Source: Dehalococcoidia bacterium
GTDB lineage: Bacteria; Chloroflexota; Dehalococcoidia; Bin125
Assembly (NCBI GenBank): GCA_963555985.3
Contig: OY820591.1
Coordinates: 1,696,001-1,760,000 of the forward strand
DNA: 64,000 nt
Direction of reading: 5' to 3'
Made by a program: the position numbers and the translations under genes. Below are positions 49,072 through 64,000 of the stretch, in pieces (the stretch's first letter is position 1; every line of letters begins with the position of its first letter). Below the pieces are notes generated by a model. It ran no database searches, was not told where the DNA came from, and worked only from the letters and a program-made list of their open reading frames with translations.

Positions 49072-51726
49072 TCATTCGCCGCCCATCGCGGAGTCGTCGT
49101 CGCCTGCGGTAGGTTCTCCGCATCTGCCCGTGTTCGAGTCGATCTTCTTGACGTCGTATTCGACAGCGGCCCATTGCATGAGGCAGTCCTTCATTTCGTG
49201 TTGATCCACTCCAAACTGCCGCTCCAAGGCACCCTCGGTGAACCACCAGGACCACCAGACCAACGTCTGGTGGTCAGCGAACTGACGATAATACGAAAGC
49301 AGCGACCGTTCACCACCCATGTGAACGAGCAATTCGGTCGCAATCGCGCCCAAGTCGTATGCGAAGTTCTCCAGATACTCTTCCAACTGTTCCACATCTG
49401 CGAGATCGCAATCAAATGTCTTCTCTGCCTTACGGCACAGCTTTTTCTTCGCCTCGACCCGGAAGCTGCTCCACCGCTCTGTCTGGAGCCGGGCATAGTC
49501 GACGTACTTTCGATCGAAGTATCGAGCATTTCCTTCGTACAGCCACTCCGGGGCAAGGGAAGCTTTATCGTATCCAGCATCAAAGGCATGCAGAAATCCC
49601 TCGTAGTCCGCCGAGGCCAACTGAAGAAGGTGGAAGTACTCGTGGGCTACGACTCTCTTCGTAACCTCGAGTCCAGGTTCGTTGTACATGTCATAACGAA
49701 ATCGGATGGCTGCGTGACCCGTGCGGGCCTGGGGAGGTGCAAGTGGGTTAACACTGTTTGGAGTACTTCTTGCCGCCCGTCCCGCTGCGTTCTTCTTCTC
49801 CGTCTCCAGGTCCAACACGTCGAAGGGGATCTCGTAGTGGTACTGCTCCATCAGCTGAGCGAAATCTTCAACGAAATACGGACCGACGTACAGGAAAGCG
49901 TCCTCCGACAGAGTTCCGCCGAATCGCGCTTCGGCGAAGTGCTCGATCGGCTTGATCGACGCCGCCAACTCGGCGATGGCATAGTGATCGTCCAGGAGGA
50001 AGTTCGCCTGCGCGCGCGTTTGATCGCCGGGCACGATCGCCAGGGCGTACTTGCCCTCGGCGAGCCGGTTGATGGAAGTGACGTCGATATAGTAGGTCCC
50101 GGGTTTGAGGACGAAGGTCGCGCCGGCGCCATAGGGTCCGAACCGACCGGCCCCGCTATCGCTGTAGTCATCGCCGCGCGACAGGCGGAACTCCACTGGC
50201 AGTTCGCTCGAGATTAAGTCGACTCGAACTTCGCGCTCCCCGTCCACCGTAAACGCGTATCGGTCAACCCGGCGCGACGGCGATGGATTGAGACTGAGGC
50301 AATCGCCCGATTCCAGGTGGCCATGCCCGACCAAACTATGCCGAACGTCCGTGGTGTCGATCGTGCCGAGTTCGATCGAGCCGCAGTCCCCGCCTGTTCC
50401 CGTCCGGCCATCGGAACCAAGTGAGACGCTGAGCTCATAGTTCCCAAGGCCGTCATAAGTTTGAGCGGCGACGATCTGGTAGTCGCCTGGGGCGAGGGAC
50501 TGGGTGATCTGGGAGCGCAACCCAGTTTCATCATCACCCGGAACAATTTCCCGTCCAGACCCATCCAGCAGGCGGACATACTCCGAGAAATCGCCGGAAC
50601 TCATCTTGATCGTCACCTCGGCGCTTTGCTCAAGCTTGAATGAGTAGAGGTCTGCGCGCTGTTCGGAGTCCAGCGGATCGCGGCAGTCGTCCCAGTAAGA
50701 GAGCAAGCCGGAGCGGTACGCGCCGAGCGAGCGCAACGTTCCCAGATCGTGGGCCGCGCAAGCGGCGACGCCGCCCTGCGTCACGCGCAGGCCGGCCGGC
50801 GGACTCGACTGACCATTGTCGTCGTCGCCCCAGCAATGGACCGCGCCTGACGCCGTCAGCCCGCAGGTGTAACCCCAGCCCGCGCTGACCTGCGTGAAAC
50901 GCCCGGCCGGCGGACTCGACTGGCCGGATTCGTCGTCGCCCCAGCACTGGACTGCGCCCGACGCCGTCAGCCCGCAGCTGTGTGTCCCGCCCGCGCTGAC
51001 CTGCGTGAAACGCCCGGCCGGCGGACTCCACTCGGTCGGCGGACTCCACTGGTCAAAGTTCACGTAGCCCCAGCACTGGACTTCCTTCGACGCCGTTAGC
51101 CCGCAGGTGTGCAACGAGCCCGCGCTGACCTGCGTGAAACGCCCGGCCGGCGGACTCGACTGGCCCGCCCAGTCGTCGCCCCAGCACTGGACCGCGCCCG
51201 AGGTCGTCAGCCCGCAGGTGTGCAACGCGCCCGCGCTGACCTGCGTGAAACGCCCGGCCGGCGGACTCGACTGGCCGAATTTGTCGTTGCCCCAGCACTG
51301 GACCGCGCTCGACGCCGTCACCCCGCAGCTGTGAAAAAAGCCTGCGCTGACTTGGGTGAAGCGACCCGCCGGCGGACTCGACTGGCCGTAGTCGTTCCGG
51401 CCCCAGCACTGCGCCGCGCCCGACGCCGTCACGCCGCAGCTGTGATGTACGTCCGCGCTGACCTGCGTGAAGCGCCCGGCCGGCGGACTCGACTGACCTT
51501 CGTCGTCCCCGCCCCAACACTGCACAGCGCCGGACTCCGTCACTACGCAGGTGTGATCCCCGCCCGCGCTGAGGGTTTCGACTAAACTCGATCCGCCCGA
51601 CTGCGCCTCTGCCGACCCGGCCTCAAGCCCCCAAACCGCAGCCGCAGCGACGACCGCGATGACCGCGAGCGCGGCCAGCCGCAGTTGCAATCTGAACCCA
51701 CCGTCTCCCATTTGCCGGAATGTCAT
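49072..51726 (-). CDS. Secreted multidomain protein: signal peptide, 7 RCC1/BLIP-II repeats, two PPC-like domains, zincin-like HExxH domain
   Basis: Hydrophobic N-terminus ending AEA-Q; 37-aa repeats QVSAG..H.CG....G.VQCWG....GQ; D.Y.F...PG.Y.I beta-sandwich patterns; VAHEYFHLLQ. Confidence 0.82.
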   Translation of the reverse strand: MTFRQMGDGGFRLQLRLAALAVIAVVAAAAVWGLEAGSAEAQSGGSSLVETLSAGGDHTCVVTESGAVQCWGGDDEGQSSPPAGRFTQVSADVHHSCGVTASGAAQCWGRNDYGQSSPPAGRFTQVSAGFFHSCGVTASSAVQCWGNDKFGQSSPPAGRFTQVSAGALHTCGLTTSGAVQCWGDDWAGQSSPPAGRFTQVSAGSLHTCGLTASKEVQCWGYVNFDQWSPPTEWSPPAGRFTQVSAGGTHSCGLTASGAVQCWGDDESGQSSPPAGRFTQVSAGWGYTCGLTASGAVHCWGDDDNGQSSPPAGLRVTQGGVAACAAHDLGTLRSLGAYRSGLLSYWDDCRDPLDSEQRADLYSFKLEQSAEVTIKMSSGDFSEYVRLLDGSGREIVPGDDETGLRSQITQSLAPGDYQIVAAQTYDGLGNYELSVSLGSDGRTGTGGDCGSIELGTIDTTDVRHSLVGHGHLESGDCLSLNPSPSRRVDRYAFTVDGEREVRVDLISSELPVEFRLSRGDDYSDSGAGRFGPYGAGATFVLKPGTYYIDVTSINRLAEGKYALAIVPGDQTRAQANFLLDDHYAIAELAASIKPIEHFAEARFGGTLSEDAFLYVGPYFVEDFAQLMEQYHYEIPFDVLDLETEKKNAAGRAARSTPNSVNPLAPPQARTGHAAIRFRYDMYNEPGLEVTKRVVAHEYFHLLQLASADYEGFLHAFDAGYDKASLAPEWLYEGNARYFDRKYVDYARLQTERWSSFRVEAKKKLCRKAEKTFDCDLADVEQLEEYLENFAYDLGAIATELLVHMGGERSLLSYYRQFADHQTLVWWSWWFTEGALERQFGVDQHEMKDCLMQWAAVEYDVKKIDSNTGRCGEPTAGDDDSAMGGE
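50795..51575 (-). repeat. Seven ~111-bp intragenic tandem repeats (RCC1 blades)
   Basis: Recurrent CCGCGCTGACCTGCGTGAAACGCCCGGCCGGCGGACTC at ~111-bp spacing; one unit carries an extra 18 bp. Confidence 0.9.
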
Positions 51727-59996: not shown

Positions 59997-61313
59997 ATGA
60001 CCCGCTACATCGCGTTGATGCTGATCGCCGCCGGGATAGTGCTGGCTGCCTGTTCGCCCGATCTGCCGCGGGGCGCGGTGCATGTCTCGACTCTGGCCGA
60101 TGACATTGGCCCGGTCTCGGCCAACTTCATCAAGCGGGCTCTGGATCGGGCTGAAGAGGCGGGTGCGGTTGCCTGGATCCTCGAGCTAGACACGCCAGGC
60201 GGGTTGATCTCGTCGACCGACGACATCGTGCAGCGGATTCTGGCGGCTGAGGTTCCGGTGGTGATCTTCGTCAGTCCGGCGGGGGCGCGGGCGGCTTCGG
60301 CGGGGACGTTCATCACGCTGGCGGGCAATATCGCGGCGATGGCTCCGAACACCCAGATTGGGGCGGCGCATCCGGTGGCGGGGGGCGGGGAGGACATTGA
60401 CGGCGACCTGGGCGACAAGGTGACCAACGACGCCGCGGCGGACATTCGCGGGATTGCGGAGCATCGAGGGCGAAACGCGGAATGGGCAGAACAGGCCGTG
60501 CGCGAGTCGGTCTCGATCACCGGCAGTGAAGCGGTTGAGCTTGGCGTCGTTGATCTCGTAGCTGACGACCTGGACGATCTCCTGGAGCAACTCGACGGGA
60601 TGGTGGTGGACGGATTCGGCGCGCTTGCGGTGTCGGGCGCGCCGATGGTGGAGACGGACTACACGTTTGCCGAGAACGTGCTTGACGTGATCGCCGATCC
60701 GAACATCGCCTTCATTCTGATCAACATCGGCGGACTGCTCTTGATCGTGGAGGCGTTCTCGCCGGGGCTGGTCGGTCCGGGCGTCTTCGGCGTGATCATG
60801 CTGATCGTGGGCTTCTTCGCCCTGGGCCCGCTGGACACGAATCCGGCGGGGATTGCGCTGCTGGTGCTGGGCTTGATCTTGCTCGTGGCCGAGGTCTTTG
60901 TGGCCGGCTTCGGCTTTCTCGGCATCGGCGGGATCATTGCGTTGGTGATCGGGGGGCTGATCCTGATTGGGGATGCGTCGGTGGATGCGGAGAAGGTGTC
61001 GGTCTGGGCGTTGATCGTTGGCGCGGGCTTGATCGGAGCGGTGGTGTTGGGGATCGGCATGTTGGTCGGGATTGACCGGCGGCGGCCGAAGTGGCGGCCT
61101 CGGCTCACGAGCCAGGATTCGGACGGGATCGTGGGCAAGGCGGGGGTGGCGCACAACCTGCTCTCGCCGCAGGGCACGGTCGTGGTCGATGCGGAGTTGT
61201 GGTCGGCGCGGGCGGCGGCGGGGGTGGAGATCGCGCAGGGAGCGTCTGTGCGCGTGATTGGGATGGACGGTCTGACGGCGATTGTGGAGGCGGAAGAGAG
61301 CGAGCCTCAGTAG
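59997..61313 (+). CDS. nfeD: NfeD family membrane-bound serine protease
   Basis: LDTPGG, AASAG, IGAAHPV, membrane domain and C-terminal OB-fold (ELWSAR). Confidence 0.92.
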
Positions 61314-61675
61314 GAGTGGATGGCGCGTTTGGCGTTGCGGGGGCGCTGGGGGATGCGTGCGGCGCGGCCGGTGCGTCCGCGGAGGTAGTAGAGGCGGCTG
61401 CGGCGGACGCGGCCGCGGCGGACGACTTCGACTTTGAGCACGCGCGGGGAGTGGTAGAGGAAGGTGCGCTCGACGCCGATGCCCTGGGTGACGCGGCGGA
61501 CGGTGAAGTTGGAGGAGGAGCCCTTCTTCTTGCGCCGGATGACGACGCCTTCGAAGACCTGGGTGCGCTCGCGGTCGCCTTCGACGATGAGAGCATGGAC
61601 GCGCACGGTGTCGCCGGGTTGAAACGGTTGGATTTCCTCGTTGCGTTCAAGGGTGAGCAGGTCGCTGCGGTCCAT
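61307..61675 (-). CDS. rplS: 50S ribosomal protein L19
   Basis: [39 protein letters not shown]. Confidence 0.98.
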
Positions 61676-62009
61676 CGTTCGTTCTCTCGGCGTGTTGGGC
61701 GGGAACTGCCAGTGTACGCGGGGGGTTGGCTTTGGCCTAGCGCCCGATCGGGGTGACCCTCAGGCGGAGCGTGACGCGGGATACATCCACAAGGGGATTG
61801 TTCGGCTTGGGGGTGTTCAGGGAGAAATTTATTTTGGCGTGCGGGGATGCTGATCTCCTGTGTTTTCTGGGGTTTTGGCGTTTGGGGTGTTCAGTCTTGT
61901 TCAGGTTTGGGTGTTCGATTGCGTTCGATTGCGTTCGATTTTGGACGGATTTGTGCGGACTTGGACGGGGGCGTTCGGGTGGTGTTTGGGATGTGCGCGT
62001 GGTGTCACC

Positions 62010-62243
62010 CGTTGCGTCACCGGCCATTTCGGAGGCTCCTCAACGCAAGGAGCGCGGCACCTATTCGATGATCCACGTTGCGTCACCGGCCATTTCGGAG
62101 GCTCCTCAACGGTCCTCTACCCCAACCCGCACGGCTACTACCGTTGCGTCACCGGCCATTTCGGAGGCTCCTCAACGAGCGTTGCGCGTTGCGTATCCGT
62201 TCGCCATCGTTGCGTCACCGGCCATTTCGGAGGCTCCTCAACG
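62010..62243 (-). CRISPR. CRISPR array: 4 identical 36-nt repeats, 3 unique 30-nt spacers
   Basis: Repeat CGTTGCGTCACCGGCCATTTCGGAGGCTCCTCAACG (+ strand) at 62010-62045, 62076-62111, 62142-62177 and 62208-62243; exact 66-nt period. Strand inferred from the adjacent gene and scaffold pairing. Confidence 0.93.
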
Positions 62244-63872
62244 AGATAGCAGCCGGAAGCCGGGCAGCGACGCCTGCGTTGAGTGACCTCCTCCATGATG
62301 GGCGAATTCTGGGCGGCTCCCCCGTTCCAGGTGGTTCGGGATCACAGCGGCCGGGGCGGGAACGCAACACCCGCCCTCTGTCAGAGACAGTTGTAAGACG
62401 TTACGCGCCGCGTTCACGTCGGCGTTGGCGGCGTAGCCGCAGGCGGGGCAGTCGAACGTCTCGCCCTGCCGCGCACCCGGCTCGATCGCGCCACACGCTG
62501 AACATGCTCGGGACGTGTAGGGGGCCGGGACCCTGACTAGATGCCCGCCGTGCTTCTCGGCTTTTTCTCCCACGAGCGTCAGGAATTGGCCCCACGTCTG
62601 TTCGCTGATGCTTCGGTTCAGTCCTCGTTTCTGTTTGACGTTCCGCCCCGGCTCCTCCACGGTGCCGGCAGCGCTCTTGGTCATGTTCGGAATCCGCAAG
62701 TCCTCGGCGGCGATGTGGTCGTAACGCCGCACCAGAGCCTGTGCGATGCGGTGATCCTGCTGGCGACGGCGGATGCGGTTCTTGCGCTTGAGCTTGGCGA
62801 GTCGGCGTTTTCGCCGCTCCAGGGTCTTGCTGCCTTTCCGCGACGGCCGGCGGCGGCTGCGCTTCTTGGTCTTGGTTGCGGTCAGCCGCTGCAAGCGCTT
62901 TTCTTCGCTGTCGTCGGGTTCGCGCTTCGGAATCATGATCCCGTCTGAGAGCGCGACGCGAGTGTTGACACCCAGGTCGAGACCGACCATTTTGCCGGCC
63001 TTGGGCAGCGGTTCACGCTCCACCTCACAGACCAGATCGACGTAGAGGCCGTTTGGAGTGAGGTTGAAGCGCACCTCTTTGGGCTTGCAATCGGGCAAGG
63101 TTCCGGGTGACTTCAGCTTGATCCGCAGGTAGTGCTTTCCCTTATGCTGCTGCGCCTTGTGAAACACCACCTCCGCGCGATGCCCGCAGGCCGAGCGCTT
63201 GACATTGCCAGCCTTGATCATCTTGGAGCCGATGCAGCGCCAGCGCTCGCGCTTCTGGTACTTCGGCATCCCGCGAATTCCACTGAGGTGCGCCTGGATG
63301 CTGTTCTGAGCCTTTGCAATCGCCCAGGCCAGCAATCCAAAGTCGAAATCCCGAAGCTCTGGGAACTCGGCGCGCAGAGGCTTGAGGTCGTAGGTCATGG
63401 AGTTGTAGCCGCGGAAGGCCGGCACGCCCGCTTTGGTTCTGCGGTAGTTGTTGGTCTCGGGCAGTTGACGGCGCTCGCGCTCGGCGTCGGTTCGCTCGCC
63501 TACCACCTCCCACCACTTTTGCCCGGTCTCCTCCTCATCTTCCTTCGTCCACCAGGGCGGCTTGTAGACCTTGCGGTAGACCGGCTCGCCGTTTTCGAGG
63601 ACTGGCTTGCCGTTCTTCATTCTCGGCACGATCCAGTACTGTCCCTGCGGGCCGATGCCCTGCTCCCGCATTCGGCGATAGTCGCGGAAGGCGCGGTATT
63701 CCTCGACGACGGCGTTGTAGATGGCGCACTGGACTCCGGCGATGCGGTGGAGCTTGTCGTAGTCGCTGCGGCGGGCGCGGACGGCGCGTCGCTGGAGGGT
63801 TCGGACGAGAGGTTTGGGGGTGTCGGGCATCTGTTGGTTTGCCTCGTTTGGGGGATACTCATATGTTCGCAT
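62238..63872 (-). CDS. tnpB: CRISPR-associated TnpB-family RNA-guided RuvC nuclease (Cas12f/type V-U-like)
   Basis: RuvC-I VGLDLGV (D299), RuvC-II IAAEDL (E390), Zn finger CSAC/CPAC, RuvC-III NADVNAARN (D485); IS605-type SAAGTVEEPGRNVKQKRGLNRSI segment. Alternative start at ATG 63830. Confidence 0.92.
   Translation of the reverse strand: MRTYEYPPNEANQQMPDTPKPLVRTLQRRAVRARRSDYDKLHRIAGVQCAIYNAVVEEYRAFRDYRRMREQGIGPQGQYWIVPRMKNGKPVLENGEPVYRKVYKPPWWTKEDEEETGQKWWEVVGERTDAERERRQLPETNNYRRTKAGVPAFRGYNSMTYDLKPLRAEFPELRDFDFGLLAWAIAKAQNSIQAHLSGIRGMPKYQKRERWRCIGSKMIKAGNVKRSACGHRAEVVFHKAQQHKGKHYLRIKLKSPGTLPDCKPKEVRFNLTPNGLYVDLVCEVEREPLPKAGKMVGLDLGVNTRVALSDGIMIPKREPDDSEEKRLQRLTATKTKKRSRRRPSRKGSKTLERRKRRLAKLKRKNRIRRRQQDHRIAQALVRRYDHIAAEDLRIPNMTKSAAGTVEEPGRNVKQKRGLNRSISEQTWGQFLTLVGEKAEKHGGHLVRVPAPYTSRACSACGAIEPGARQGETFDCPACGYAANADVNAARNVLQLSLTEGGCCVPAPAAVIPNHLERGSRPEFAHHGGGHSTQASLPGFRLLSR
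62244..62380 (-). ncRNA. Putative omegaRNA/tracrRNA-like scaffold overlapping the 3' end of the nuclease gene
   Basis: Anti-repeat at 62277-62291 and hairpin at 62354-62376 whose loop is complementary to the repeat 3' end; boundaries approximate. Confidence 0.7.
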
Positions 63873-63968
63873 AGTTTGGGCTGAATGGCAAATGGGGGGT
63901 GCTGCGAGGTTGCTGGATTTGTCGTTCAGGAGCAGGCGATGATCCGCGCTCTAGTCGACACGCCGCAT

Positions 63969-63993
63969 GGATTCCCGCGTTCGCGGGAATGAC
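63969..63993. repeat. REP-like palindrome GGATTCCCGCG-TT-CGCGGGAATGAC
   Basis: Perfect 9-bp stem; related to 28595-28664. Confidence 0.7.
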
Positions 63994-64000
63994 GGAAACA

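Follow-up and report, generated by a model that had tools for sequence, protein, structure and literature searches.

Locus

The window, meaning the whole 64,000-nucleotide stretch of Dehalococcoidia DNA analyzed here, encodes a TnpB-derived RNA-guided nuclease whose gene runs directly into a small CRISPR array. The features of the locus, in gene-sense order, are as follows.

62238..63872 (-), TnpB-derived RNA-guided nuclease gene (Pfam, NCBIfam, structure model)
63411..63671 (-), REC insertion of ~85 residues (alignment A1; lower model confidence)
62976..62978 (-), RuvC-I D299, nearly invariant in alignment A1
62703..62705 (-), RuvC-II E390 (alignment A1)
62439..62504 (-), CxxC/CxxC zinc finger (TNB), CxxC at 457 and 475
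62418..62420 (-), RuvC-III D485 (alignment A1)
62354..62376 (-), scaffold stem 1, which array-less relatives also have at this position
62313..62352 (-), predicted scaffold stem 2, within the sequence coding for the disordered C-tail (MFE only)
62277..62304 (-), anti-repeat to the 5' portion of the repeat (-23.3 kcal/mol; 9/1000 shuffles)
62244..62276 (-), 33-nt loop ending in GCTATCT (62244-62250), encodes the last protein residues
62208..62243 (-), repeat 1, contains the stop codon
62178..62207 (-), spacer 1, gene-proximal, probably the newest (target search without match)
62142..62177 (-), repeat 2
62112..62141 (-), spacer 2 (target search without match)
62076..62111 (-), repeat 3
62046..62075 (-), spacer 3, 29/30 match to the host chromosome
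62010..62045 (-), repeat 4, gene-distal, undegenerate
61307..61675 (-), rplS, right-hand neighbor

The open reading frame (63872..62238, minus strand) encodes 544 aa from the first ATG or 530 aa from the ATG at 63830, the start called in the protein collection. The four 36-nt repeats start at 62010, 62076, 62142 and 62208, are 100% identical and enclose three distinct 30-nt spacers, and the stop codon of the nuclease gene (TGA, 62238-62240) lies inside the gene-proximal repeat. The initial annotation had described the three catalytic residues and two CxxC motifs, the repeats and spacers with the stop codon in repeat 1, and rplS as the next gene downstream of the array, and all of these were confirmed in the sequence. 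A 10-nt tandem repeat lies downstream of the array (61905-61945), with a 20-nt longer form in one run.

The host genome is 3.33 Mb (96% complete, 7.5% contaminated) and holds a single tnpB copy and a single array of this kind. The initial annotation had reported no cas1, cas2, cas4 or tnpA in the window, and searches of the 3.33 Mb genome (96% complete) found no Cas1 and no Y1 TnpA. Inspection of the sequence beyond the window for tnpA or cas1 had been proposed; it holds a Dam-like methyltransferase gene (below the family cut-off) and then trmD. As trmD directly precedes rplS in 7 of 8 family relatives examined, the locus is read as an insertion at the trmD-rplS junction, with the tnpB-array locus and the Dam-like gene placed between the two. 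No homolog of the window protein was found in the 64 other family genomes, and no sigma-70 promoter or gene-sense terminator was found at the locus. An Rfam search gave no match, and no RNA data set was listed as containing the sequence, a result that does not bear on expression.

The Dam-like gene (L016:164-1408, past the window edge) lies directly upstream of tnpB. An IS1595 element (L328/L330) also carries a methyltransferase-like passenger, and with such genes at both places tnpB and the Dam-like gene may have arrived together. A REP-like palindrome (63960-63998) has 63 similar copies in the genome and also occurs near the genes of loci L005 and L218. Elsewhere in the window (49072-51726) is a gene for an 884-aa secreted-looking protein with about six 37-aa repeats, which we take to be RCC1-like.

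Contigs from runs X1 and X2 cover the gene, cross the gene-repeat junction and reach 28 nt into repeat 1, with no single contig covering the whole array, and repeat-spacer-repeat pieces identical to the window were present in runs X1, X2 and X3. These three runs belong to the same study, and the source sample may be among them. Run X5, from a different study, contains an exact 151-nt piece of the nuclease gene and one 96-nt repeat-spacer-repeat contig with 12 other letters and 4 gaps relative to the window. The listed differences all fall inside the spacer-3 interval, i.e. a different spacer lies between the same repeats. The initial annotation had suggested looking for the same repeat with different spacers in other material; this single 96-nt contig is one such case and hints at spacer turnover between populations.

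Nuclease and relatives

The window protein is above the Pfam cut-offs for OrfB_IS605 and TNB and scores 177 bits against the NCBIfam guided_TnpB model (cut-off 100). Its predicted structure (pLDDT 82.6) has the TnpB fold, and the protein combines the WED/REC region, the RuvC domain with DED triad and the TNB zinc finger of the TnpB superfamily. All NCBIfam Cas12 models were below cut-off, including C2c8 (V-U2; 125.7 vs 350) and Cas12f2 (70.2 vs 450), which by these models places the protein outside Cas12f and V-U2. The best PADLOC match is Cas12u4 (157.9 bits), among proteins of solved structure RdCas12n is nearest in sequence (89.5 bits, over the RuvC half only), followed by ISDra2 TnpB (67.6), and LaTranC is distant (E 1.6e-7). 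The closest homologs are P0002 (71%) and P0121 (72%), and in alignment A1 the REC insertion is common only to the window protein and P0002. The C-tail is disordered from residue 489 of 530 (pLDDT <50).

The C-terminal peptide Q..LPGF (62250-62276) is kept in P0002, P0121 and P0139 despite upstream frame changes, and its coding stretch overlaps the leader-like loop treated below. We take it to resemble a beta-clamp motif, and its conservation may reflect clamp binding rather than RNA conservation. A clamp-binding motif is reported for cyanobacterial OrfB in the accessible text of PMC3971601.

A class-wide search gave matches in 13 of 401 genomes; apart from the self-match, the five top-ranked loci have a small array directly after the gene and the remaining seven have none. 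Further scans added L145 and L218, bringing the relatives to seven distinct array-bearing and about 20 array-less loci. The initial annotation had allowed that homologs might never have arrays, and these seven relatives remove that objection. In a careful tree of 36 rows, built with long-branch L008 and near-duplicates left out, the window protein and its relatives group together as a clade (100/100) to the exclusion of IS605-type and IS607-type TnpBs. Rows with and without arrays are intermixed in this tree, and a single clade of array rows was rejected (AU p=0.009; the test was run after a quick tree had been viewed). The array character took 4-6 changes in bootstraps, at least two of them forced by starred branches; P0002 was scored as array-bearing without a view of its locus and, as the sister of the window, leaves this count unaffected. 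The array-less sister group of the window (L108/L109) has support of 94/94 only. Because the seven array-bearing relatives do not form one clade, the tree suggests that arrays were captured repeatedly within it.

The array starts 150-249 nt after RuvC-III in all seven array loci measured, and an array at that place was seen in none of the 30 IS607-type loci tested and in two of 78 TnpB loci from viruses. Single-protein locus scans of genome and viral contigs found no close relative, and the clade pattern had no viral match. Locus L006 keeps 16 repeats, and the gene-distal terminal repeats have decayed in L004, L005, L006 and L218. Among the genomes of array-bearing relatives, G610 has a Cas9 system, one has type I-C, and no cas1 was found in three. 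Arrays also lie within 400 nt of RuvC-III in three unrelated TnpB loci (L189, IS607-like, in G487; L034 and L072, viral), and a lone 23-nt piece of the L218 repeat (L252; G610:C1:380959-380981) lies 2.4 kb downstream of the L218 array, just before a gene start.

In array-less members of the clade, conserved motifs mark the end of the element 105-170 nt beyond RuvC-III. Nine of the 14 array-less relatives tested carry an inverted version of this end on their left side (12+/16 TIR), and six have flanking duplications of 7-9 nt. The same inverted ends flank an IS1595 transposase element present in two copies in G997, with 8-nt duplications; none of nine IS1595 loci had a TnpB inside, and none of five genomes with solo copies had Y1 TnpA. 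We infer that the solo elements are mobilized in trans by IS1595 transposases. The initial annotation likened the C-terminal half of the protein to an ordinary IS200/IS605 TnpB; the locus is no ordinary IS200/IS605 element, the nearest solo relatives having terminal inverted repeats and ~8-nt target duplications in common with IS1595 elements. Hallmarks of IS200/IS605/IS607 elements (a Y1 or serine TnpA, or asymmetric ends with the omegaRNA reaching the right end) were not found at the window locus (serine recombinase was checked by motif scan beside 14 solo relatives), and IS1595-type inverted ends and target duplication are absent there and in the host genome. By sequence, the window locus reads as a TnpB that has lost its transposon ends and is immobilized. 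No TAM consensus emerged from the left flanks of solo copies and two self-targets. One solo TnpB family (L205, L207, L214, L223, L328, L330) has IS1595-type inverted ends and 8-nt duplications; its right end doubles as an omegaRNA pseudoknot strand, and four copies occur in one genome.

DDE-linked TnpBs with inverted ends are known (PMC10691335). As portrayed in the accessible part of that paper, these branches resemble the nearest relatives of the window protein in their terminal inverted repeats, in solo copies mobilized in trans and in an omegaRNA that ends at the element end. The same part names IS630 rather than IS1595 and draws no CRISPR link, and the window locus further differs in having no ends.

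Guide RNA and origin of the repeat

In array-less loci a stem lies about 40 nt after RuvC-III and its loop is complementary to the last 6-7 nt of the element; this pairing, at +45 or +53, was found in 8 of 12 loci with base changes on both sides. In the window, the 9-nt loop of stem 1 (62361-62369) has its complement in the final 9 nt of the repeat, which gives a predicted pseudoknot. Such a helix (6-9 bp, 45-56 nt after RuvC-III) occurs in four of seven array loci with four different sequences: L004, L005 and L145 pair loop and repeat end like the window, with three other sequences. The other three of the seven are without it at the usual position, the pseudoknot being displaced in L218 and L006 and missing in L007. 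The cognate loop-repeat pairing was better than permuted pairings (37 of 5040).

The MFE structure of 62208-62382 contains stems 1 and 2 as well as a long helix of anti-repeat and repeat, capped by the 33-nt loop. Both pseudoknot strands stay unpaired in it, an arrangement that resembles the RdCas12n guide as described in the available portion of PMC12216341. Whole-scaffold folding is no better than shuffles (z -0.41 and -0.74), and duplex stability (-35.8 for the plus strand vs -37.1 gene-sense) does not fix the orientation. The 5' anti-repeat is significant only in the window locus; in the six other array loci 504-934 of 1000 shuffles pair as well as the actual sequence. The stretch 62277-62294 was considered as an IS605-type omegaRNA end with guide and dropped, since it behaves as anti-repeat and the bases after it agree with the II-C leader. 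On the predicted fold, the locus would share the dual-RNA organization of TranC, namely a TnpB-like effector, an array and a split omegaRNA-like RNA. The loop-repeat pairing and predicted fold also support the earlier view of a multi-guide TnpB-to-Cas12-type locus free of cas genes, where the repeat would stand in structurally for the omegaRNA 3' strand.

Type II-C cas1 is above cut-off in 5 of 64 family genomes, and the II-C arrays of the family have the 36+30 geometry of the window array. The window repeat aligns with all five family II-C repeats in the same gene-to-array orientation (score 18-20; 0-7 of 1000 dinucleotide shuffles), with about 50-55% identity and a match over its central 11 nt. 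CTATCT stands directly before repeat 1 in all five arrays and in the window, where the 7 nt before repeat 1 are GCTATCT (frequency 2.7e-5 per position). Type I repeats gave no alignment with the window repeat (309-1100 of 2000 shuffles as good), and for a II-C repeat taken from an unrelated genome, 263 of 1000 shuffles did equally well. The repeats of L004 and L006 are also II-C-like and those of L218, L145 and L007 are not; the leader motif is clear only in the window and partial in L005 and L006. L145 has 29-nt repeats with a 61-nt period, the other class being 36 nt with a 66-nt period. We take the L145 geometry to be type I-E-like and, if so, its array would be a separate capture.

The initial annotation proposed that the 3' end of the omegaRNA had become a CRISPR repeat. 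The array-less relatives end in an unrelated motif, and since the window repeat and the 7 nt before it match the II-C arrays of the host family, the locus seems instead to carry a captured II-C leader end with repeats that replaced the transposon end.

Spacers

No window spacer matched phages, plasmids or IMG/VR, the viruses of this host being probably unsampled. Spacer 3 matches the host chromosome at 29 of 30 positions (G000:C1:139399-139428; mismatch at position 24) within an APH-family phosphotransferase gene and is antisense to its mRNA. The target is a resident gene, since its orthologs in 11 family loci differ more from the spacer (3-5 mismatches). At this single self-target the protospacer flank is G/C-rich. 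Among 27 spacers of five arrays tested against their own genomes (L003, L007 and L145 left out) two are self-matches, the other being exact (spacer 8 of 15 of L006, at L242, G404:C1:2410496-2410527). Both are antisense to a metabolic gene and neither is leader-proximal, the window one being spacer 3 of 3. The C-terminus encoded by the L006 target gene is presumably cyclase-family-like. The APH-family gene (L015) adjoins a class III aminotransferase gene, and about 10 kb away is an ORF that we take to be IS30-like. Weak family-wide matches to spacer 2 were dropped, there being no 30-nt match within 6 mismatches. A chromosome-matching spacer is awkward for an active nuclease.

Interpretation

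We put at roughly two in three the probability that the window holds a cas-less, tracrRNA-type miniature type V-like nuclease, an immobilized TnpB that would have captured the leader end and repeats of a host II-C array. At that same level of confidence, the likeliest nature of the locus is a functional nuclease guided by a dual RNA or a natural single guide, with past reprogramming through II-C Cas1-Cas2 supplied in trans. It would operate in the manner of Cas12n and TranC. One transcript would run from the nuclease gene through the array, and the region coding for the C-tail would fold as the old omegaRNA scaffold. The stem-1 loop, whose partner in array-less relatives is the transposon end, would now pair with the 3' end of the repeat, and the anti-repeat with its 5' part. 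Scaffold, repeat 1 and spacer 1 would form a natural single guide, and spacers 2 and 3 would need pairing in trans and processing by host RNase. The complex would cut dsDNA carrying a 5' TAM. New spacers would enter at the gene-proximal end through type II-C Cas1-Cas2 acting in trans (acquisition in trans had been presumed in the initial annotation); no Cas1 was found in the host genome, so the array is probably frozen there. Tolerance of the self-matching spacer would most likely reflect a flank that does not serve as TAM or poor loading of distal guides. In the accessible text of 10.1101/2024.10.25.620265, Listeria II-C Cas1-2 needs leader and repeat, and integrates in trans into a foreign array with 54% repeat identity.

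The evidence on the repeat also bears on a de novo origin, in which a 3' segment of the omegaRNA was duplicated and came to resemble II-C repeats by convergence, under selection for service by II-C Cas1-Cas2. The repeat does occupy the omegaRNA 3' position, its identity to II-C is modest, and the accessible parts of PMC10691335 and PMC13565253 favor this route for type V and TranC. Against it, the end motif of array-less relatives is conserved and unlike any repeat, the leader motif and the central 11 nt match II-C, and the repeats of relatives belong to different classes, each with a matching loop, so that we regard this origin as quite improbable. Least probable is a chance neighbor or inert relic, a TnpB that landed by an orphan array with no joint function. 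The missing cas1 and foreign targets and the one self-match would suit such a relic; loop-repeat complementarity that tracks the repeat in four loci, the regular distance from RuvC-III to array start in seven of seven, and the rarity of arrays at that place in IS607-type and viral TnpB loci do not.

It is unlikely, if less so, that only scaffold, repeat 1 and spacer 1 work, in cis, with the array updating the guide and older spacers silent. Anti-repeat and repeat 1 would pair in cis across the 33-nt loop, both self-matching spacers lie away from the leader, and survival would be explained without a TAM argument, but repeats 2-4 are kept identical, L006 retains its long array, and Cas12n uses crRNA and tracrRNA in trans according to the available portion of PMC12216341. 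This proposal is compatible with the working nuclease that we favor and accounts for the self-matches. The locus could also belong to a group already catalogued among the TranC clades, the 40 V-U groups or the 12 variants of Tordoff 2025, which we consider possible though doubtful. Those surveys drew on public metagenomes, and in size, in the length of the repeat and in its short arrays the locus agrees with TranC clades as given in the accessible part of bioRxiv 10.64898/2026.03.27.714800. However, the LaTranC match is weak, TranC is described as IS605- or IS607-derived, clades 11/20 appear without a tail-encoded tracrRNA in that part of the preprint, and many genomes of the present clade are probably recent MAGs.

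Cas12n (V-N, V-U4; RdCas12n, PDB 9J09) is alike in many respects in the accessible text of PMC12216341: about 540 aa, a disordered tail, intact DED and a zinc finger, a tracrRNA inside the ORF end (predicted in the window), a stem-1 pseudoknot with the repeat end and a repeat:anti-repeat stem. Cas12n recognizes a 5'-AAN PAM and cleaves dsDNA as a monomer; its sequence match to the window protein covers the RuvC half only. The best loci for the Cas12u4 model are array-less, IS607-ended TnpBs (up to 387 bits vs 158 for the window protein) that fall outside its 100/100 clade. That search found no array-bearing Cas12n, and the IS607-type lineage served as proxy for it in the tree. By this proxy, in a tree without a true Cas12n sequence, the window protein would lie outside the Cas12n clade. 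The clade motif LYNAAL is absent from the 141-row protein table of PMC12216341 (first 400 letters per entry).

TranC (Jin et al. 2025), as portrayed in reviews and one preprint, shares the TnpB-sized effector, short cas-less array, repeated origins and an omegaRNA split into tracr-like and crRNA parts. It differs in being reported from IS605/IS607, whereas the nearest relatives of the window protein have IS1595-type ends, and in that the window repeat seems to come from a type II-C system by capture and not from a split omegaRNA. LaTranC is also distant from the window protein. In Cas12r of Thermus phages, as presented in the available part of 10.64898/2026.04.20.719267, a TnpB-like gene likewise leads directly into a short array, and its repeat is similar to that of a host CRISPR type from which spacers are proposed to come in trans. 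Cas12r differs in that it works without a tracrRNA, is carried by phages and has I-E-like repeats of 29 nt. PMC12669027 infers some 50 independent conversions of TnpB to type V. With Cas12n, TranC and these origins, the kind of system is already described. A literature search of titles and abstract openings found nothing on IS1595-ended TnpB or on capture of a II-C array by TnpB. We tentatively propose, at somewhat under even odds, an undescribed Dehalococcoidia-centered TnpB lineage, derived from IS1595-ended solo elements, that repeatedly became CRISPR-guided through captured host arrays (II-C here, a 29-nt-repeat type in L145), with one pseudoknot loop re-tuned to each repeat.

The accessible part of PMC10691335 leaves two routes to type V arrays undecided, duplication of omegaRNA segments and insertion of TnpB at arrays already present. 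If our proposal is true, the clade would directly document the second route. Ancestors and several independently formed products would then stand next to one another, and a Cas9-type array would be read from the strand on which the Cas9 PAM side becomes the TnpB TAM side. It has both solo ancestors and array forms with matched loop changes, so the conversion could be rebuilt in a few base swaps and is testable, and it supplies compact putative nucleases (400-530 aa) with a predicted natural single guide. The window locus appears to be a snapshot of how new CRISPR systems can arise, the end of a guide RNA having been swapped for an array of the Cas9 system of the host lineage.
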